Source: a virus (taxonomy: Duplodnaviria; Caudoviricetes). Taken from it: a stretch of 64,000 bases of DNA. The notes under the pieces were generated by a model, which saw only the letters and a program-made list of their open reading frames with translations, did no database searches and had not been told where the DNA came from. The stretch covers positions 5,325 through 69,324 of the IMG/VR virus record IMGVR_UViG_3300020036_007076. The stretch is one strand, 5' to 3'. A program made the translations under genes and the position numbers. Below are positions 5,302-56,285 of the stretch, piece by piece. The first letter of the stretch is position 1. Each line of letters opens with the position of its first letter.

Positions 5302-5719
5302 AAATACACCAATTTATCCAATAGCAGATTTAAATAATCATCCTTCATTACTATTTGGTTTAACAAAACGAGAATATTTTGTTGGTTTAGCTATGCAAGG
5401 ATTATTATCAAATCAGTCAATCACAGAACATCATGGAGAATCTGCAATAAAATGGATTACTGAGCATTCAATTAAACAAGCAGATGAAATATTAAAACAA
5501 TTAGGATTAAATATAATAGAAGAATCAAATGAATTCTTTAAAAATAAAGATGAAGTTTGGGTAAAAGATTTAGAGGATGAACTTCCAGTAAGTGCTATTT
5601 TCATTAAATATAATGATTCTAACCAAAAATTTAAATATAGGGTTATAATAGGAGGAAATGATTATGAATCTGATGTTGCTTTTTGTAAATTAAAAGGAAC
5701 TGACCAAAAATGGTATTAA
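5291..5719 (+). CDS. hypothetical phage protein (TKREYF..AMQGLL family)
   Basis: GLTKREYFVGLAMQGLL motif; start reassigned to MENKN. Confidence 0.65.
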   Translation: MENKNTPIYPIADLNNHPSLLFGLTKREYFVGLAMQGLLSNQSITEHHGESAIKWITEHSIKQADEILKQLGLNIIEESNEFFKNKDEVWVKDLEDELPVSAIFIKYNDSNQKFKYRVIIGGNDYESDVAFCKLKGTDQKWY

Positions 5720-6152: not shown

Positions 6153-6209
6153 AGTACTAGGATTACAAAATTTTTTAACATATATTTATAAAAATTAAAA
6201 GATATACAA

Positions 6210-7783: not shown

Positions 7784-8044
7784 ATGAAAAGAGAAGAATA
7801 TGTTCAAATGCGTAATTCCAAAACCATATCAATGGAATTAGCTTGGGAATTTTACCAATTAACTCCACACAAATCTCCAAAAGTACCAATTCAATTATTT
7901 GAACAAGTATTTCCAATGTTCTTACAAGGAATATTAATGTTCAATTCAACTATAGATAAATTATATCTCCACTACGACATGAAATTCAATGTTCATAAAT
8001 TAGATGGAACATTTAAAGGTCAAACAATTTCTAAATATTATTAA
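7784..8044 (+). CDS. hypothetical protein
   Basis: follows promoter repeat. Confidence 0.65.
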   Translation: MKREEYVQMRNSKTISMELAWEFYQLTPHKSPKVPIQLFEQVFPMFLQGILMFNSTIDKLYLHYDMKFNVHKLDGTFKGQTISKYY

Positions 8045-8247
8045 AAAATGGAAACAACAAATCTTATTTATCACTTATTAGTGGTATTAATGTCAATAGT
8101 TATGTTTAACACAAAAATAACTGCACCAAATGATTTTCTTGAAATTATTCTAAAATCACTTGCAAAATTAGGTTCATTATTTTGTATGTTATATGCTGGA
8201 GTTTAGTTGTTTAAATATTTTGGAATTATATAAAATAATATGGAATA

Positions 8248-8296
8248 TAACGGCATCAAGCTATGCGCTCGTTTTAATAGCGCATAGGTTGTGTTA
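8248..8296 (+). repeat. attC-like site S1
   Basis: TAAC ggcat CAAgCTATGCGCT cgttttaat AGCGCATAGgTTG t GTTA. Confidence 0.8.
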
Positions 8297-8435
8297 GTTG
8301 GTGCGGTTGCCAGTGGGCTGGTTCTGTTTGTTTTTGTTCTTTTTTGAGAAGGGAGGGGAATTTTAACAAATTATTTGAAACTTTTATTTGTATATATCGT
8401 ATATATGATGTATATTTACTGAAAAATTATAAACC

Positions 8436-8678
8436 ATGAAAACAAAAGAATATAATACAGTTGGTACAGTTGCTTTAAAAGCAGGCGGAACAATGGAAAT
8501 AGGTTCATATTTCAAAGAATTTGAATGCGAAGAAACTGGAATGAAATTAATTGAAGAAACACCAGTTGGATTAATGAGAATTACAGGTATAAAAAGAACT
8601 GTAATATTACCAACAGGAGAAAGAGAAAATTTTATGACTGAAACCACATTTGAAATATTTAAAAAATTAATGAAATGA
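8436..8678 (+). CDS. cassette 1 gene A, hypothetical
   Basis: inside cassette GTTAGTTG(8293)...CAACTAAC(8838). Confidence 0.65.
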   Translation: MKTKEYNTVGTVALKAGGTMEIGSYFKEFECEETGMKLIEETPVGLMRITGIKRTVILPTGERENFMTETTFEIFKKLMK

Positions 8679-8830
8679 GTAAGCAACGTAAAAATATAGA
8701 CTTCACTGATTTTTGTATTGAACAAATTTCGATTGAAGCAGTAAAGAAAAAAACCGATTTCAAGAATTATATTCAGGAATTATCTGAACGTGAAGCTGTG
8801 CGGTTGGCAAAAAAGAACAAAAACAAATAG
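8675..8830 (+). CDS. cassette 1 gene B, small hypothetical; not in ORF track
   Basis: MSKQRKNIDFTDFCIEQ...KNKNK*; ends immediately before CAACTAAC. Confidence 0.55.
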   Translation: MSKQRKNIDFTDFCIEQISIEAVKKKTDFKNYIQELSEREAVRLAKKNKNK

Positions 8831-8834
8831 CAAC

Positions 8835-8920
8835 TAACGGACGGCAATATATGTAGTTGCCTTGCACGAACTTAAAAATTAGTATAAACCTTAATAGGCA
8901 ATTACATATATTGCTTGTTA
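8835..8920 (+). repeat. attC-like site S2
   Basis: TAAC ggacg GCAATATATGTAGTTGCC ... GGCAATTACATATATTGC tt GTTA. Confidence 0.85.
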
Positions 8921-8934
8921 GCAAACGTTTTTTT

Positions 8935-9267
8935 ATGGATTATAAATTAACAACAAATATACAATATTCACACCACGATAAAGATGGTGCTGACAGAAAT
9001 TATATATCATATTTTTTGAATGGCATATTAATATTGAAACAAAAAATACCATTCGATACAAATTGGGAACGTGGCTTTGATAGACGAACATCAATATATG
9101 ATGAATATATTTTGAATGGTAAAATGTATCAAAAACGTAGAAAGTGGCTTGGATGTTCTAATGAGGATAATGATAAAACGGAAATACGAGAGGTGTCATT
9201 CCCATTATCAAAAAATAGATTAGCACAATTTGATATACCAAAGGACTTTCGGATTGTGGTGTCTTAA
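8935..9267 (+). CDS. cassette 2 gene, hypothetical
   Basis: start reassigned to MDYKL; flanked by GTTAGCAAAC and GTTTGCTAAC. Confidence 0.7.
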   Translation: MDYKLTTNIQYSHHDKDGADRNYISYFLNGILILKQKIPFDTNWERGFDRRTSIYDEYILNGKMYQKRRKWLGCSNEDNDKTEIREVSFPLSKNRLAQFDIPKDFRIVVS

Positions 9268-9276
9268 TATGTTTGC

Positions 9277-9402
9277 TAACGTAAAAGTATTGCCGAAGGT
9301 GGGGGCATTAAACCACCAAAGCTAAATTGAAACACAAATGATTGTTAAACCGATGAAGCACCATAGTAGCACTTCTGCCCCACTTTTGGCAATACAGTGT
9401 TA
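9277..9402 (+). repeat. attC-like site S3
   Basis: GTATTGCCGAAGGTGGGG ... CCCCACTTTTGGCAATAC between TAAC and GTTA. Confidence 0.85.
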
Positions 9403-9431
9403 GGTGCAGTGCTTCTCACAAATTTAAAATA

Positions 9432-9680
9432 ATGAAATACATAATTTATGAAATGATTACACCCGAACACTTACAAAAAGTAGTTCAAGAAGGTTATGGT
9501 TACACAAAAACACTTTACAGAAATGTCTTAGAAAAATTAGATGTTTCAGGTGTTGAAGCAGAACACCAAACATTAGAAATGGCTATGGCTGAAATTTTGT
9601 CAAAAAAAGATAAGTTGAAACACTTAGAATTAACGATACTTCCTGTAATAGCAATTTCTTGGGACGGTGAAGTTTCTTAG
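9432..9680 (+). CDS. cassette 3 gene, hypothetical
   Basis: flanked by GTTAGGTGCAGTGCT and AGCATTGCACCTAAC. Confidence 0.7.
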   Translation: MKYIIYEMITPEHLQKVVQEGYGYTKTLYRNVLEKLDVSGVEAEHQTLEMAMAEILSKKDKLKHLELTILPVIAISWDGEVS

Positions 9681-9689
9681 CATTGCACC

Positions 9690-9816
9690 TAACGGCTTCG
9701 GGCTTTGTGTCCGTTGGCGACTTAACCCACCAATGTTAAATTAAAATACAAAACTTGATAATATGAAAAATGTTGAATTGAAAAACGAAACCCCCACTTT
9801 TGGCAATGTGCTGTTA
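9690..9816 (+). repeat. attC-like site S4 (hybrid arms)
   Basis: left arm CGGGCTTTGTGTCCGTTGGCG; non-matching right arm CCCCACTTTTGGCAAT. Confidence 0.8.
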
Positions 9817-10152
9817 TGCCCCGTTTTGGGTCAAACGTATAATTACTTTGATGATGGGAAGATTAACCCAAGTCGAAGAATGGAAGTGGTTATAACAGAA
9901 ATTATTCCATTTGCCGAAATAGATTTAGAAACTTTAAATAATTGGAAAGAAGAAGTTGAAGAATGTGATTGGCTTTATGCTAAAGAAACGGATTTTTTTG
10001 TAAAGGCTGATTTGAAAATTTCCGATAATAAGACTGAAAAGATAATTTTTGTAAGAACCATTAATAATAACGATGGCTGGTTTAGTCTTGGATGGTGGGG
10101 AGGTAGATTAGACATAGATGGTTCGTTAAACGCTCTGTTAAATGGGGCATAA
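9763..10152 (+). CDS. cassette 4 gene, hypothetical; start codon lies in the S4 loop
   Basis: MKNVELKNETPTFGNVLL encoded by the hairpin; stop is the TAA of TAAC. Confidence 0.7.
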   Translation: MKNVELKNETPTFGNVLLCPVLGQTYNYFDDGKINPSRRMEVVITEIIPFAEIDLETLNNWKEEVEECDWLYAKETDFFVKADLKISDNKTEKIIFVRTINNNDGWFSLGWWGGRLDIDGSLNALLNGA

Positions 10153-10277
10153 CGTTTCTCGGCTTGTTGTCAGGCGGGGATTTAGAAACACAAAACTTTC
10201 AATTATGATACGAAGATTATTAGAATTACTACACTTGATTAAACCACAGAAGCCCCGCTTGCAACAAACCGATGTTA
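10150..10277 (+). repeat. attC-like site S5
   Basis: TCGGCTTGTTGTCAGGCGGGG ... CCCCGCTTGCAACAAACCGA. Confidence 0.85.
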
Positions 10278-10414
10278 GCGGAAGTGCTTCTCGTAAGCCT
10301 AACCCTTATCAGTTGGTTTGGTATAAGCAAGGTTGGTCGGAAAACAGAGTTAGAAAAAACAACTCAAAATATTGGGAATTTGAAATAGAACACAATGGTC
10401 TGCGGTTGCCATAG
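10205..10414 (+). CDS. cassette 5 gene, hypothetical; start in the S5 loop
   Basis: MIRRLLE...PRLQQTDVSGS; cassette ends GTTAGCGGAAGTGCT and AGCATTTCCGCTAAC. Confidence 0.6.
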   Translation: MIRRLLELLHLIKPQKPRLQQTDVSGSASRKPNPYQLVWYKQGWSENRVRKNNSKYWEFEIEHNGLRLP

Positions 10415-10423
10415 CATTTCCGC

Positions 10424-10549
10424 TAACGGTTTGCAGATTGCCGAAGGTGGGGCATTAAACCACTAAACTTTAATTAAAATACAAAACTTGATAATATGAA
10501 AAATGTTGAATTGAAAAACGAAACCGCCAATGGCACAAAACCCGTGTTA
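10424..10549 (+). repeat. attC-like site S6 (hybrid arms, reciprocal to S4)
   Basis: left arm ATTGCCGAAGGTGGGG; right arm CGCCAATGGCACAAAACCCG. Confidence 0.8.
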
Positions 10550-10765
10550 TCGGCTGGTTGGATTTCTGTAAAAGAGCAATTACCTGAATGTTGGAGTCAA
10601 CACCGAAATGATTATGGAAGTGGTTACGTTCTTGGTTATACTAAATATGGTGAATGGGAAATAACTCAACTTTGGAATAATAAAGATTGGGAAGGTGATG
10701 ATGACAATGAAGGTGATTATATTACTCATTGGATGCCGTTGACCGTTCCACCAACTTGCCGATAA
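10496..10765 (+). CDS. cassette 6 gene, DUF551-like
   Basis: WISVKEQLP...ITHWMPL; start in the S6 loop; stop is the TAA of TAAC. Confidence 0.75.
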   Translation: MKNVELKNETANGTKPVLSAGWISVKEQLPECWSQHRNDYGSGYVLGYTKYGEWEITQLWNNKDWEGDDDNEGDYITHWMPLTVPPTCR

Positions 10766-10891
10766 CGGTACTCAGATATATTTAGGTTTTCTTTTTAATA
10801 TATAAAACAAAAAAATAAACGAAGATGAAACATTTAAAAACACCACAAGAGTTGAACGAAGCATCAGAAAACTTGAATATATCTGATGTTA
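10763..10891 (+). repeat. attC-like site S7
   Basis: TCAGATATATTTAGGTTTTCT ... AGAAAACTTGAATATATCTGA. Confidence 0.85.
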
Positions 10892-11049
10892 GCCACAGTA
10901 TGACTGGTGAAGGTATGAACAGCCTTGAATTTTTTGATATGATTAAAAAGGAATGGTGTGTAAGTGAAGAACAGTATAAGCCATTCTGGAATGATGTGTT
11001 AACATTTGCTCGAAAGTATCACAAAGAACGTAAGGAATATTGTGGCTAA
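10825..11049 (+). CDS. cassette 7 gene, hypothetical; start in the S7 loop
   Basis: cassette ends GTTAGCCACAGTAT and ATATTGTGGCTAAC. Confidence 0.65.
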   Translation: MKHLKTPQELNEASENLNISDVSHSMTGEGMNSLEFFDMIKKEWCVSEEQYKPFWNDVLTFARKYHKERKEYCG

Positions 11050-11066
11050 CGGCCAATACTGTGTTA
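11047..11066 (+). repeat. attC-like site S8 (internally deleted)
   Basis: TAAC ggccaatactgt GTTA; no hairpin remains. Confidence 0.7.
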
Positions 11067-11111
11067 TAGGTAGTTGTTTTAAAAATTAGCGTTGGCATTA
11101 AAAATATAAAT

Positions 11112-11390
11112 ATGAAATCAGCAGAAGAAATTTTGAAGCCGTATGTTGAAACACCATTCAGGCATACGCAAATAGTTGAAAAAGACAATGCGTTGTTAGC
11201 AATGCAAAAGTTTGCAGACCAATTTAGAGGCGTTGAATGGATTGCGGTTAAAGACCAAAAACCAGCAGATTATGACAGAGTGTTATATTTTGATAGCAGA
11301 GATGGAAATATGAACGTAGGATATTTTGTTTGGTCGCAAACGCCTGTAGATTATGTAACGCATTGGATGAAATTACCTGCTAAACCTTAA
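11112..11390 (+). CDS. cassette 8 gene, DUF551-like C-terminal domain
   Basis: WIAVKDQKP...VTHWMKLP; cassette ends GTTATAGGTAGTTGTTT and AAACAATTACCTATAAC. Confidence 0.75.
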   Translation: MKSAEEILKPYVETPFRHTQIVEKDNALLAMQKFADQFRGVEWIAVKDQKPADYDRVLYFDSRDGNMNVGYFVWSQTPVDYVTHWMKLPAKP

Positions 11391-11423
11391 CTGTGCGGTG
11401 GGAATTTTTGAAACAATTACCTA

Positions 11424-11508
11424 TAACGGTTGCAAATATACAACGTTTTTTGTTAAAAATTCTAAATAAATTTGGTAGTCTGATAAAAATATTTTATATT
11501 TACTGTTA
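11424..11508 (+). repeat. attC-like site S9
   Basis: GCAAATATACAACGTTTTT ... AAAAATATTTTATATTTAC; weaker stem. Confidence 0.7.
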
Positions 11509-11524
11509 GCAAATCGTAAAAATT

Positions 11525-11671
11525 ATGAAAACTTACAAAGTATTATTTTGGTGGGGAAAAGTTAGAAGACAAGAATATGTAGATGCAGAAAAATTAGATG
11601 ATGCACTAAAGTTATTCAGACAAGGAAAATATGGTGATTATGATGTTATTAGCATAGTAGAAAGCGAATAA
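11525..11671 (+). CDS. cassette 9 gene, 48 aa hypothetical; not in ORF track
   Basis: MKTYKVLFWWGKVRRQEY...IVESE*; flanked by GTTAGCAAATCGTAAAAATTAT and ATAATTTTTATGTTTGCTAAC. Confidence 0.65.
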   Translation: MKTYKVLFWWGKVRRQEYVDAEKLDDALKLFRQGKYGDYDVISIVESE

Positions 11672-11684
11672 TTTTTATGTTTGC

Positions 11685-11811
11685 TAACGTAACGCAAGTA
11701 TAAGAAGTTGGGGACTTGAAAAAGTTGGCGTGGGTTCATCGAATCGGGTCAGTTATAGAAGCCGAAGTTCTCAATAGACTCATAACCCCCAATTTCTCAT
11801 ACTTGATGTTA
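11685..11811 (+). repeat. attC-like site S10
   Basis: CAAGTATAAGAAGTTGGGG ... CCCCAATTTCTCATACTTG. Confidence 0.85.
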
Positions 11812-11836
11812 TGTAATCGTTTTAATGTTACATAAC
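11808..11836 (+). mobile_element. gene-less cassette 10
   Basis: GTTATGTAAT cgttttaat GTTACATAAC. Confidence 0.7.
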
Positions 11837-11959
11837 GTTTTGCAGCTAAACGAGGTGGCTGATTAATACCTCGAAACTTAATTTAAATGTATAAAATTAT
11901 GAGTAAAGATAAAACTTCATTAGAAAACGAAAGCCAGCCATCTTGTTTAGGTGCTGTTA
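11833..11959 (+). repeat. attC-like site S11
   Basis: GCAGCTAAACGAGGTGGCTG ... CAGCCATCTTGTTTAGGTGC. Confidence 0.85.
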
Positions 11960-12102
11960 TAAACAGTATTTCTGATGATGGGTTAATTAAACTGTATAGG
12001 TTAGCTTATAATGATGGATTTGATAATGTTGGGGATAAGAAAGATATTATAAAACATAGACAAAAACAGATAGACAAAATTAAGAAGAAATATTGTTTAT
12101 AA
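11887..12102 (+). CDS. cassette 11 gene, hypothetical; start in the S11 loop (11887 or 11899)
   Basis: cassette ends GTTATAAACAGTATTTCT and AGAAATATTGTTTATAA. Confidence 0.65.
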   Translation: MYKIMSKDKTSLENESQPSCLGAVINSISDDGLIKLYRLAYNDGFDNVGDKKDIIKHRQKQIDKIKKKYCL

Positions 12103-12227
12103 AACACAAATGAGTTCTCAGCTTGACCCTACTCTTATGAATGTCAGCAGTAAACTTTTAGGAGTAATTACTCCATATAGTAACAGGTGCCTGATGGATC
12201 CCTGATAAGAAAGAGGGTGCTAAAAAT
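12103..12227 (+). ncRNA. putative structured RNA motif, copy A
   Basis: AACACAAATGAGTTCTCAGC..TGACCCTACTCTTAT..ATAAGAAAGAGGGTGCTAAAAAT, shared with 14984..15123. Confidence 0.55.
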
Positions 12228-12297
12228 TAAGTTAATTTATTAGGATTACAAAATATTAAAGTGTATATTTATTCTATAAATTTAAAATCACAAACAC

Positions 12298-13125
12298 ATG
12301 TCTGTAATTAAATTAGCACTTGAAAAACAAAGAGAAGAACTAATTGAGAAATTAGATATTGCTCAATCATCACTTAATGAACAAATTAATAAAGAAACAC
12401 ATTTATTATTTGATTCGATTGATGATGTGTTTAAAGATTCTAGAATTACTGTCTCTGACTGTAAAATTGAATTTTTTATGGATAGTTCCTCAGGAAAATG
12501 GAGTGGTCACTTCAGTATTGAAAGAAGAAATACCTATAGTTTTAAAGAAAACGCTATAAAATATCATCCCGCTATACTCAATTATAGTTCATGCTCTTCT
12601 CCTGATGAGTTTGAGTTAAAAGGAATGATTGGGAAAGGTAAAATTGCATTCCACCAACTAAATAAAACCAAAACTTGGGATGAAATGGTTGGATTAATGG
12701 ATAAATATGAACAATTGAAAGAGGAATTAATAAAACCTATTAGTGATGTAATTTACGAAATAAGAAATGAATTAGATCTTATCAAACGAAATGAAGAAAC
12801 TGAAAGAATTGAAGCATTAATCAAACAAAAAACAGTCAAATTAGCCAAAAACTATACTTTACAATTAAGTAATAGTAGATATGATAATATCAATTCAAAT
12901 GAATTCTTTTGGGAAGAAAATCCATCAGGTAAAACATACTCCATTTCATACACACATAAAACAAGAGTAAACCCATACTATGATGAAAATGGGGAAAAAT
13001 TGGAAGGTGAATATAAAGATGAAGTAATTAAACTAAATAAACGATTTAAAAAATCTGAAATCTATTATTTGGTTGGTGTTAAAATTAGAGAAGAAAATAA
13101 CCAATTAAACGAAAAAGAATTATAA
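12298..13125 (+). CDS. hypothetical protein
   Basis: 275 aa ORF after promoter repeat. Confidence 0.75.
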   Translation: MSVIKLALEKQREELIEKLDIAQSSLNEQINKETHLLFDSIDDVFKDSRITVSDCKIEFFMDSSSGKWSGHFSIERRNTYSFKENAIKYHPAILNYSSCSSPDEFELKGMIGKGKIAFHQLNKTKTWDEMVGLMDKYEQLKEELIKPISDVIYEIRNELDLIKRNEETERIEALIKQKTVKLAKNYTLQLSNSRYDNINSNEFFWEENPSGKTYSISYTHKTRVNPYYDENGEKLEGEYKDEVIKLNKRFKKSEIYYLVGVKIREENNQLNEKEL

Positions 13126-14699: not shown

Positions 14700-14983
14700 A
14701 AAATATTGATCGCAACGTTTGAGGACGCCTCCTTCTCCTCAGAAGTAAAGAAAGATAAAACTGGTCTAGTTGCGATCATTCTTAAATAGGTTAAACATTG
14801 AATACCTTTGTAAATACCTAATTAGCCGACCTGGTGTTGGCTTCTAATGGGTGGATAAGTTTTACATAAAGATACCATCTCCTGAATCGACAGGGAACTG
14901 GCTTAACCGCCAGTGAAGTAATTCTGTGATGTGTTGTTCCCTTGAGAAAGGAATAGTGAGTGAATAGAATACGCAGTTTCTAC
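14700..14983 (+). ncRNA. putative structured ncRNA(s) behind a dedicated promoter
   Basis: no + strand ORF; helices GATCGCAAC/GTTGCGATC, AGCCGAC/GTTGGCT, ACTGGC/GCCAGT. Confidence 0.45.
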
Positions 14984-15123
14984 AACACAAATGAGTTCTC
15001 AGCAAAGTAGTTAATAGGACGGAATGGTCTGATGCTGGAATGAGCAATTAACTACATGACCCTACTCTTATATGTAATGTGAAGCATGAGTTTCTGAAGT
15101 ATAAGAAAGAGGGTGCTAAAAAT
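14984..15123 (+). ncRNA. putative structured RNA motif, copy B
   Basis: same three conserved blocks as copy A, with an extra inserted hairpin GTAGTTAAT/ATTAACTAC. Confidence 0.55.
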
Positions 15124-53388: not shown

Positions 53389-54339
53389 ATGGTTATGGAA
53401 AATAGTATACTCATATCGTTAGTAGACTCTATATTAGGACCTGGTAAAAATACTGCTAGAGGAAACAGAGCATATGTTTGCCCTTTCCATATTTCAAACC
53501 CCCCAGGTAAAAAAAATTTTGAAATTAATTTTAGTCCTAATAATAATGGTGAAAATCCTTGGGCATGTTGGGGTTGTGGAACTAAAGGTAAAAAAATACA
53601 TAATTTATTTAAAAAATTAAAGGTAAGTCCTGATAAGTATGATCAATTAAGATTAATTATTAAATCAATACCCAAAGGTTATAATTTACCAACAGAAACT
53701 AAAATTGTAGAATTACCAAAAGAATTTACTTCATTAATTAATATTAAAAAACCATCATTACCTGCAAGAAGAGCAATAGTCTATTTAAAAAATAGAGGAA
53801 TAACAGAAAATGATGTTGTGAAATATAATTTAGGATATTGTGAAGATGGACCTTATAAAAATATGATTATAATCCCATCATATAATGCAGATGGAATGTT
53901 AAATTATTTTACAGGACGTTCATTTGAAAAGGATCCATTTATAAAATATAAAAATCCTGATGTATCAAGAGATATAATAGCATTTGAGTTATTTATAAAT
54001 TGGAATGTTCCTATAATAATATGTGAGGGGTTTTTTGATTCAATTGCTATAAAAAGAAATGCTATACCATTGTTAGGTAAAAATATACAACAAAACCTAA
54101 TGAAGAAAATATTTCAATCAAATGTTGAAAAAATTTATATTGCATTAGATAAAGATGCTATAAAACAAGCATTAAATTTTTGTGAATCACTAATGAACGA
54201 AGGTAAAGAAGTTTATTTAGTTGATCTTAATGATAAAGACCCTAGTGATATGGGTTTTTTAAATTTTACTAATTTAATTCAAAACACTTTACCATTAACC
54301 TTCTCAAATTTACTTGAGAAAAAACTTCAAATGATATGA
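53389..54339 (+). CDS. DNA primase (Zn finger plus TOPRIM)
   Basis: CPFH..CWGC; ICEGFFDSIA; IALDKDA. Confidence 0.9.
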   Translation: MVMENSILISLVDSILGPGKNTARGNRAYVCPFHISNPPGKKNFEINFSPNNNGENPWACWGCGTKGKKIHNLFKKLKVSPDKYDQLRLIIKSIPKGYNLPTETKIVELPKEFTSLINIKKPSLPARRAIVYLKNRGITENDVVKYNLGYCEDGPYKNMIIIPSYNADGMLNYFTGRSFEKDPFIKYKNPDVSRDIIAFELFINWNVPIIICEGFFDSIAIKRNAIPLLGKNIQQNLMKKIFQSNVEKIYIALDKDAIKQALNFCESLMNEGKEVYLVDLNDKDPSDMGFLNFTNLIQNTLPLTFSNLLEKKLQMI

Positions 54340-55121
54340 TAGAAAAAGGACATTCCATCCATAAAAAAAGTATTACAAGAATATTAGAATTAGATCCTGA
54401 AGGTAAACAAATTAACTTCTTAGATAATAGATTTTACAAACGTTATGAAGGATATTACCCATCAGTAACTAGTATACTTCAATATTTCCCCAAAGGTAAA
54501 TTCTTTGAAGATTGGTTAAAAGATGTAGGACATAATGCTGAATTCATAGCTAAAAAATCAGCAGATGAAGGAACACAAACCCACAGTTTAATTGAAAAAT
54601 ATCTAGAAGGCCACCAAATTAATTGGTTAGACGAACATGGTAATGCAACTTGCTCTTTAAATGTTTGGCAGATGTTACTAAAATTTGTTGAATTCTGGGA
54701 ACAAGAAAAACCAGAATTAGTAGAAAGTGAAATCCATTTATTTTCAGATAAACATAAGATTGCAGGAACATGTGATTTAGTTATCAGGTTAAGAGGAAAA
54801 TTATGGATATTAGATATTAAAACATCTAATAATTTACACACTTCATATGATTTACAATTAGCAGCATATGCTACTTGTTGGAATGAAACTTTTGAAGAAA
54901 AAGTTACCAACACAGGAATCATTTGGTTAAAGTCTTCTAAGAAAAAAGCAAATAAAGATGCAGATAGAATTCAAGGTAAAGGATGGGAAATATACGTATC
55001 TCCACGTTCTATTGAAGAAAATTGGGTATTGTTTGATAAAGTATATGATTTATATAAATTAGAAAATCAAACACAAGAACCATTATTCAATAAATTTCCC
55101 TTATCAGTTAAATTAAAATAA
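54336..55121 (+). CDS. PD-(D/E)XK exonuclease (Cas4-like family)
   Basis: PSVTSIL, GTQTH, AGTCDLV..LDIKTS, QLAAY. Confidence 0.85.
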   Translation: MIEKGHSIHKKSITRILELDPEGKQINFLDNRFYKRYEGYYPSVTSILQYFPKGKFFEDWLKDVGHNAEFIAKKSADEGTQTHSLIEKYLEGHQINWLDEHGNATCSLNVWQMLLKFVEFWEQEKPELVESEIHLFSDKHKIAGTCDLVIRLRGKLWILDIKTSNNLHTSYDLQLAAYATCWNETFEEKVTNTGIIWLKSSKKKANKDADRIQGKGWEIYVSPRSIEENWVLFDKVYDLYKLENQTQEPLFNKFPLSVKLK

Positions 55122-55175
55122 TTGATTTTCTATTAATTTCTAATATTTATAATGGATTAATCTTTACTACAATTC

Positions 55176-56285
55176 ATGGAATATTTAATTGACACACTTA
55201 CAAAAACTTTATTATCTGATAAAGATGTAAAATATTTACTTGAAGATTTATCGAAAGAAAAAGATACCCCAAAAAATCTTAAAGAAATCATAGCCTCATT
55301 AACTCAATATATGATTGATCAGGGAATGAATGTTTCTCCTTTACCTAAATTAATCATTAAAAACAGTGATTTAGAAAACGCTGAGAATGTTTTAGGTAAA
55401 ACTGCATATTACAATCCAAATAATTGTTCTATAGTATTATATACATTGAATAGACACCCTAAAGATATAGGTCGTTCTTTTTCTCATGAAATGATTCATA
55501 GAATCCAAGATAATGAAGGTAGATTAACTAATGTAACTACTAGTAATACTAATGAGGATTCTTCTTTAAAAGAATTAGAAGAAGAAGCATATTTGAGAGG
55601 AAATATGACTTTTAGAAATTGGGAAGATTCAATCAAAAACAAATCAAACTTAACAGAAGGTAAATTTGATAAAATTACAGGTTTAATAGTAGATAAGATA
55701 TGGCAATATATTAAAAAATCAAAATCACTAAAATCTCCTACTAATGTATATAAAACAACAATTAACATTGGTAAATATACTTTTTATTTAACTACATTTA
55801 TAAAAAGAAGTAATAAATATAATTTTCAATTAGCAGTAGATGCTAACCAAAAAGAAAATGAGATTCAAGTCTTAATAAATCTAAACCCAGATTATGAACC
55901 TGATTCATATGTTAAATTAAATTCTAAACTTCAGGATGCTGTAAGACATGAAATAGAACATACATTACAAGATCCTAAAAGTACTAATTTCACCCCTGGT
56001 AAACCAAAAATGACTTCTTCTTCATATAGAGGAGAAATCCAACATGATCCTAAAAAAATACACAGATATTTTACATTGAAAGATGAAATACCTGCAATGG
56101 TTAATGGATTATATAGACAAGCAAAAACAGAAAAAAAACCAATTGATGAGGTGTTTAAAGAATATCTCCAATTCTTTCTAGACTCAGGAGATATAAACCA
56201 ACAACAATTAGATAAAATAATAAAAGTGTGGAGCGAGTATACAAAAGCAAACCTCCCTGCAGCTAAGTTTTCAACAGATGTATAA
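55176..56285 (+). CDS. protein with two HExxH metallopeptidase-like domains
   Basis: FSHEMIH..EEEAY and VRHEIEH..EIPA. Confidence 0.55.
   Translation: MEYLIDTLTKTLLSDKDVKYLLEDLSKEKDTPKNLKEIIASLTQYMIDQGMNVSPLPKLIIKNSDLENAENVLGKTAYYNPNNCSIVLYTLNRHPKDIGRSFSHEMIHRIQDNEGRLTNVTTSNTNEDSSLKELEEEAYLRGNMTFRNWEDSIKNKSNLTEGKFDKITGLIVDKIWQYIKKSKSLKSPTNVYKTTINIGKYTFYLTTFIKRSNKYNFQLAVDANQKENEIQVLINLNPDYEPDSYVKLNSKLQDAVRHEIEHTLQDPKSTNFTPGKPKMTSSSYRGEIQHDPKKIHRYFTLKDEIPAMVNGLYRQAKTEKKPIDEVFKEYLQFFLDSGDINQQQLDKIIKVWSEYTKANLPAAKFSTDV

Follow-up and report, generated by a model that had tools for sequence, protein, structure and literature searches.

In this work we describe two hybrid sites, S4 and S6, which lie in an integron-like cassette array of a phage contig and are probably the reciprocal products of one recombination event within the loop common to two hairpin families, here called A and B. 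S4 joins the left arm of an A hairpin to the right arm of a B hairpin, and S6 joins the left arm of B to the right arm of A. This reading draws on the anatomy of the two sites, on the contrast between their folding and that of matched sites, and on the parental forms found in relatives.

The window, that is the whole stretch of 64,000 nucleotides analysed here, comprises bases 5325-69324 of an IMG/VR virus record of 69.3 kb with a CheckV completeness of 43%. Its GC content is about 25%, it carries 25 tRNA genes, and its gene content is that of a myophage (gp25-like protein, baseplate wedge, SegE-type and HNH endonucleases, a sigma factor and a PD-(D/E)XK exonuclease). Matches of the contig to DNA of isolated phages were weak only, with one uncultured phage record and Flavobacterium phages. 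The features of the array that matter here are the following:

8248-12106, + strand: integron-like array of about 11 small cassettes with hairpin sites bounded by TAAC and GTTA; 10 cassettes start with GTTA and end with TAAC
9277-9402, + strand: S3, matched B-type hairpin with a different loop (-15.5 kcal/mol, 20 closing pairs); B-left at 9289, B-right at 9378
9690-9816, + strand: S4, hybrid (TAAC, A-left, loop, B-right, GTTA; -8.1 kcal/mol, 0 closing pairs)
9699-9719, + strand: A-left arm, one copy in the 64-kb window
9739-9792, + strand: first copy of the 54-bp repeat (exact sequence identity), with the B-type loop centre and ATG at 9763
9792-9807, + strand: B-right arm, translated within the c4 leader; second copy in S3 at 9378
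9763-10152, + strand: c4 ORF, 129 aa (relatives 84-93% identical at the aa level); cassette body from GTTA 9813 to TAAC 10153
10150-10277, + strand: S5, matched C-type hairpin ahead of c5 (-16.3 kcal/mol, 26 closing pairs)
10205-10414, + strand: c5 ORF from the loop ATG, 69 aa (0-1 mismatch to contigs of other samples); cassette body 10274-10427
10424-10549, + strand: S6, hybrid (TAAC, B-left, loop, A-right, GTTA; -7.0 kcal/mol)
10437-10452, + strand: B-left arm; second copy in S3 at 9289
10472-10525, + strand: second copy of the 54-bp repeat (exact sequence identity), with ATG at 10496
10525-10544, + strand: A-right arm, translated within the c6 leader; one copy in the 64-kb window
10496-10765, + strand: c6 ORF, 89 aa, DUF551 (98% identical in the relative L011); cassette body 10546-10766

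Every ORF of the array is on the + strand. In all ten cassettes the GTTA start is the inverse complement of the cassette's own TAAC end, over at least 8-10 nt, and this terminal complementarity is the circular-permutation signature of integron cassettes. At position 11 of the terminal inverted repeat, eight of the ten (8293-11836) have G at the start and A in the inverse complement of the end, a difference that amounts to a G.T wobble on the + strand; the + strand fold is better than the - strand fold for all matched sites. S1-S3, S5, S7, S10 and S11 have inverted cores and paired inner arms, with 20-27 closing pairs where these were counted, and S4 and S6 are exceptions to this form. The array also contains a 29-nt 'empty cassette' at 11808-11836, made of two inverted ends and nothing else, and a tiny site at 11047-11066 in which TAAC and GTTA are just 12 nt apart. 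An Rfam search of 8000-12400 returned only a sub-threshold match to PhrS (17.3 bits vs 37). Around the array, an element of about 130 nt is present twice, just past the array end (12095-12227) and 2.9 kb downstream (14976-15123), with blocks of 28 nt at 93% identity and 23 nt at 100% identity (families D10 and D16), and a motif of about 56 nt (TAGGATTACAAAAT ... GTGTATATTTAT), which may be a phage early promoter, precedes small ORFs outside the array at 6155, 6759, 7306, 7735, 12230, 13414, 14626 and 15618.

The order along the window is c3, the A-left/B-right site with c4, S5 with c5, and the B-left/A-right site with c6. The initial annotation had described the left arm of S4 as complementary to the right arm of S6, and the left arm of S6 as complementary to the right arm of S4; both arm pairs were located, and they are reciprocally swapped. 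A-left and A-right are single copies in the 64 kb; B-left and B-right have two copies each, the other ones forming the matched S3. The spacer of B-left in S6, GGTTTGCAG, is the one that precedes the matched B hairpin of c4 in a relative (L003). The claim that both loops share 54 identical bp encoding MKNVELKNET is likewise correct: the copies at 9739-9792 and 10472-10525 are identical, with bases differing on both flanks, and include the ATG (9763 and 10496) and the codons of this peptide. This is the longest exact repeat of the array, shuffled arrays (n=200) having reached at most 15 nt.

Folds were calculated from TAAC to GTTA with DNA energy parameters, on the + and - strands, with z-scores. 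S4 reaches only -8.1 and -5.4 kcal/mol (+ and - strand, z +0.8 and +1.9) and S6 -7.0 and -6.7 kcal/mol (z +1.2 and +1.1), compared with -15.5 to -16.8 kcal/mol on the + strand for the matched neighbours S3, S5, S10 and S11, so that neither site folds well alone, as had been proposed. When the arms are swapped back in silico, the restored A-A' site folds at -15.8 and -14.9 kcal/mol and the restored B-B' site at -14.3 and -10.4 kcal/mol (+ and - strand); the hybrids are thus not as stable as matched sites, and the refuting condition proposed in the initial annotation, equally stable hybrids, fails.

The 860 nt from S4 to S6, folded as one strand, pair A-left with A-right at 19 of 21 positions and B-right with B-left at 16 of 16. 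This minimum-energy fold could be taken to mean that the two hybrids form one functional composite site, in which A-left and A-right pair across about 800 nt, c4 and c5 lie in the loop of the c6 site and the three genes are mobile as one cassette. Folding over 800 nt would be kinetically unfavourable, and no second copy in another context was found among the contigs searched for its arms, which makes a functional composite highly implausible. A broader proposal, in which the conserved loop is a recombinase-independent landing pad where circles enter by short homology, disable both sites and nest their genes in a composite hairpin of about 800 nt from A-left to A-right, to become mobile as a multi-gene cassette, we consider improbable; if true, it would provide a route from cassettes beside the site to gene-in-loop units.

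The matched forms of both hairpins exist in relatives. An exact 29-nt loop search of viral contigs gave no match, and a degenerate pattern was used instead. Five viral contigs (L002-L006) carry c4 at 84-93% amino acid identity, each of them with a matched B-loop-B' hairpin immediately ahead of c4 and with a different cassette end ahead of the hairpin. Aligned to the window, they are homologous from the counterpart of 10412-10424 (TAAC and B-left of S6), skip within the loop to 9727 and continue as far as 10154-10175, or as far as 10289 in L004, which has a c5-like cassette end immediately upstream of the B hairpin and c4. The contig with c6 at 98% identity (L011) has a matched A-loop-A' hairpin upstream of it. 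In addition, contigs from four wastewater runs contain S5 and c5 as one piece (10150/10158-10426/10428) and c6 as another (10521/10528-10765/10769), each with 0-1 mismatch. Because TAAC delimits the homology blocks of L002-L006 and is where contigs of other samples break, we conclude that the hairpin moves with the downstream gene and that TAAC is the normal cassette border. The attC rule places the site 3' of the gene and the crossover at G|TT of the second core, whereas here the L002-L006 blocks run from the TAAC before the hairpin to the TAAC after the gene, and the contigs break at 10150 and 10428. Since cassette borders in relatives and other samples lie at TAAC and not in loops, a junction within the loop is off the usual route.

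The loop ATG opens an ORF of at least 45 codons in 34 of the 36 sites examined, fused in frame to many unrelated proteins, so that the hairpin site encodes a leader of about 19 residues. Across loci L017-L052 these leaders are of an A type (M..ELKNETANGTKPVL) and a B type (MKNVDLKNETPTFGNVLL), both fused to unrelated small proteins, and the leader may serve as a tag. The c4 homologues of L007-L009 lack it; these, and the c3 homologues of L182 and L183, are ordinary genes of other phages, with no hairpins or leaders, which hints that cassettes may have been recruited from phage genes. L182 and L183, being ordinary phage genes without hairpins, were of no use as the state before the event. The initial annotation had further proposed that the event exchanged protein N-termini, which is for the most part incorrect. 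Codons 1-10 belong to the repeat and so are identical, and the residues encoded by the arms (11-19) stayed with their own genes; c4 and c6 have therefore swapped almost no N-terminal sequence. Both ORFs are intact, and c6 differs from its L011 relative at its first 5-6 residues alone (MKNVE in the window, MSTNDE in L011).

Hybrid sites are found elsewhere. The A-left 20-mer is present in 24 other viral contigs, with an intact A-right in 22, an altered right arm in two (L046 and L051, in which the reading frames are lost along with the altered arms) and B-right in none. A-right is present in 26 other contigs, 24 of them with an A-type left arm; the other two are L061, a C-left/A-right hybrid with a fold of -9.4, and L056, which has another left arm. 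The B-type loop, in 12 contigs, is flanked by B-B' arms in ten, by matched D-D' arms in one and by an unrelated left arm in one (L022, the same site as L010). For B-right, 80 of 99 matches were listed; with 12 unrelated contexts and one match cut by a contig end set aside, 67 sites were left, of which 61 are matched and six are not (L123, which is L010, L137, L143, L103, and L134 and L142, identical to each other over the stretch compared). One metagenome contig (L181) has an A-left/B-right hybrid that is independent of the one in the window and differs from it in its loop. The first 54 nt of the L181 site are exactly those of a matched A site and the last 74 nt exactly those of a matched B site, with a 19-nt overlap in the loop. 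Unmatched sites are thus rare yet recurrent, and at least one of them, L181, shows a clean crossover in the loop. A reciprocal partner was found neither for the L061 hybrid, in an arm search of the contig that holds it (L178), nor for L181, in its 1.5-kb flanks read by eye; of the sequences compared, the window is the only one in which a reciprocal hybrid pair in cis was seen. L178 also ends its array with a site (5545-5610) made of a left arm and loop whose ATG runs straight into a gene, lacking both the right arm and the GTTA core.

We propose that the parents were the A-type hairpin of c6 and the B-type hairpin of c4, and that a unit of 733 bp (right half of the B hairpin, c4, S5, c5 and left half of the B hairpin) would have been placed inside the hairpin of c6, leaving a 54-bp direct repeat and two sites unable to fold; this is the direction of the event that we infer. 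In the simplest topology, a circular c4-c5 molecule with a matched B hairpin would have integrated into the A hairpin of c6, and recombination between the two 54-bp copies would restore both matched hairpins and free the circle. The agent would be general short-homology recombination, of the phage or of the host, and not the tyrosine recombinase. Core recombination cannot be the source of the swap, because a crossover at TAAC, as we picture it, cannot part a left arm from its own right arm, and a recombinase crossover at the cores was ruled out on these grounds. Insertion by the recombinase at the TAAC/GTTA-like words of the A loop (9723 and 9735) was ruled out as well, as the B hairpin would then stay intact and nested. 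The junctions lie within the 54-bp shared block in the window and within the 19-nt shared zone in L181.

The initial annotation had invoked the integration of a circle by a crossover in the shared loop rather than at AAC. This proposal stands in part: its core, a loop crossover giving two reciprocal hybrids, is supported by the parental B hairpin ahead of c4 in five of five contigs and the A hairpin ahead of c6 in L011, but no circle is seen among the joints listed, and the loop centre of L011 complicates a simple single crossover. This centre is unlike that of B, the common stretches being about 8-11 nt on the left (AATTAAAA) and 17 nt on the right (GAATTGAAAAACGAAAC), and both window copies have the B centre. 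Consequently, either the loop of the recipient had a B character beforehand, as the reassortment of loops and arms would allow, or conversion took place later, or two crossovers occurred with a donor carrying two B hairpins; a single reciprocal crossover would presuppose that an A hairpin with such a B-type centre existed, although none was seen, or that conversion followed. The last of the three options is a non-reciprocal exchange, in which a co-infecting relative with c4-c5 between two B hairpins would have donated them by two short-homology crossovers (or break repair) at AATTAAAA and GAATTGAAAAACGAAAC, replacing the A centre with no circle involved. The B-type centre of both copies, set beside the A-type centre of the sole c6 relative, fits such an exchange; B hairpins lie ahead of many different genes, so that donors with two of them are plausible, and in L004 the B hairpin and c4 directly follow a c5-like cassette end. 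Nevertheless, it calls for two exchanges, each over 8-17 nt of homology, and the circle model for a single one, and no such donor array was found, so that we regard it as rather unlikely and retain the single exchange in the common loop as the preferred reading.

The wastewater and sludge samples of public runs were compared through Logan contigs, which contain at most 0.56 of the words, were placed on 9200-11100 and are broken at the hairpins. The initial annotation had proposed a search for reads or relatives with the 733-bp deletion and a restored hairpin: matched hairpins are present in L002-L006 and L011, and neither the deletion form nor a circle is present among the joints listed in contigs of four runs from other samples. 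The joints from 9714-9720 to 10518-10530, from 9751 to 10501 and from 9760 to 10521 were rejected as excision products, as other or unknown letters stand between their two sides, and they read as matched A hairpins of relatives with other loops. No contig among the listed pieces from other samples bridges a hybrid site, which neither supports nor refutes the window contig.

This last observation is, all the same, one to be expected if the hybrids were an assembly artefact, in which the 54-bp repeat collapsed and a separate c4-c5 sequence (free circle, tandem array or other strain) was threaded through the matched hairpin of c6. The record is a metagenome-derived viral contig, 43% complete; the two 54-bp copies are 100% identical, as in a collapsed repeat; and wastewater samples contain the cassettes and hairpins of this family in numerous contexts, with contigs breaking at them. 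Assemblers working with k >= 55 and ordinary read lengths do, on the other hand, resolve a 54-bp repeat. The artefact would also require a closed c4-c5 cycle without other exits and, in the sample, an A hairpin with a B-type centre, which none of the 24 other A-left sites shows, and the comparable hybrid of L181 shares just 19 nt, too short for most k-mer joins. We therefore judge an artefact quite improbable and continue with recombination in the loop.

A Xer-like tyrosine recombinase of 265 aa is encoded about 9 kb upstream of the array on the same strand. Against the integron-integrase model TIGR02249 (cut-off 265) this enzyme scores 151 bits, and its best match is the XerA-type NF040815 (165.9 bits, cut-off 220). 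Integrases of the IntI type are recognized by an extra domain and by adjoining attI and the array, and the enzyme of the window, below the TIGR02249 cut-off and some 9 kb distant, falls outside this type. At 54336-56282, the PD-(D/E)XK exonuclease (phrog_298) and, after it, a 369-aa ORF without family match could together be a phage recombination module. That the phage encodes such an exonuclease fits the proposed homology-driven exchange in the loop.

Several known systems resemble parts of this array. Promoter-early stem-loop (PeSL) cassettes of T4-type phages were reportedly treated by Comeau et al. in 2014. As given in the part of Arbiol et al. (2010; PMC2839356) consulted here, they are small ORFs of a variable early region, with conserved modules of stem-loop and expression signals between them; recombination near the ATG, within the module that they have in common, leads to the gain or loss of ORFs and can yield small circles, and the shuffling is attributed to general recombination with a homology need below 50 bp. 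The window is from a myophage as well, with gp25-like and baseplate wedge genes, and its hairpin, whose loop provides a start codon to many small genes (34 of 36 loop ATGs), may be a comparable module; the junctions of both the window and L181 lie inside the shared module at a homologous stretch. In contrast with PeSLs, the modules of the window also carry integron-type TAAC/GTTA cores and the circular-permutation signature, and the gene of a tyrosine recombinase is not far away; because of these cores and this enzyme, the loop crossover would be a second route beside the site-specific one. Circles are known for PeSLs, whereas none was seen for the array of the window among the joints listed, and a promoter in its loop would be hypothetical.

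In Vibrio superintegrons, repeated attC sites (VCRs) serve general recombination, which rearranges the arrays. What is reported there are deletions and rearrangements between near-identical sites, whereas the window shows a reciprocal arm swap between two arm families. Clusters of attC sites without integrase (CALINs) are described in virulent phages in the part of Qi et al. (2023; PMC9892861) used here, and the window shares with such arrays, reported there in lytic phages, imperfect hairpins with AAC/GTT cores between co-oriented small genes, and complementary cassette ends. It differs from integron attC arrays in that the hairpin moves with the downstream gene, with the border at TAAC, which is the first core of the sense strand, in that the loop contributes both the start codon and some 19 leader residues, and in that the recombinase, 265 aa long, is under the IntI cut-off. 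Those parts of the integron and CALIN literature that were consulted (PMC9892861) contain no mention of reciprocal arm-swapped attC sites, and the hybrid-attC type of term designates a normal recombined core in the consulted part of PMC8946536.

Homology-driven exchange in a shared regulatory stem-loop of myophages (PeSLs) and integron-like sites in lytic phages are thus already known, as far as the consulted part of PMC9892861 goes for the latter; what is new is the reciprocal arm swap, which would show a second route beside the site-specific one. The loop route would inactivate both of the sites that it makes, and the cassettes can then stay joined for as long as the 54-bp repeats do not recombine anew. 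If the junctions are real, the window holds a natural record of both products of one recombination, side by side, and integron-like phage arrays would be reshuffled by two routes, site-specific recombination at TAAC and homology in the loop that bears the start codon, which would tie these arrays to the PeSL shuffling of T4-type phages.
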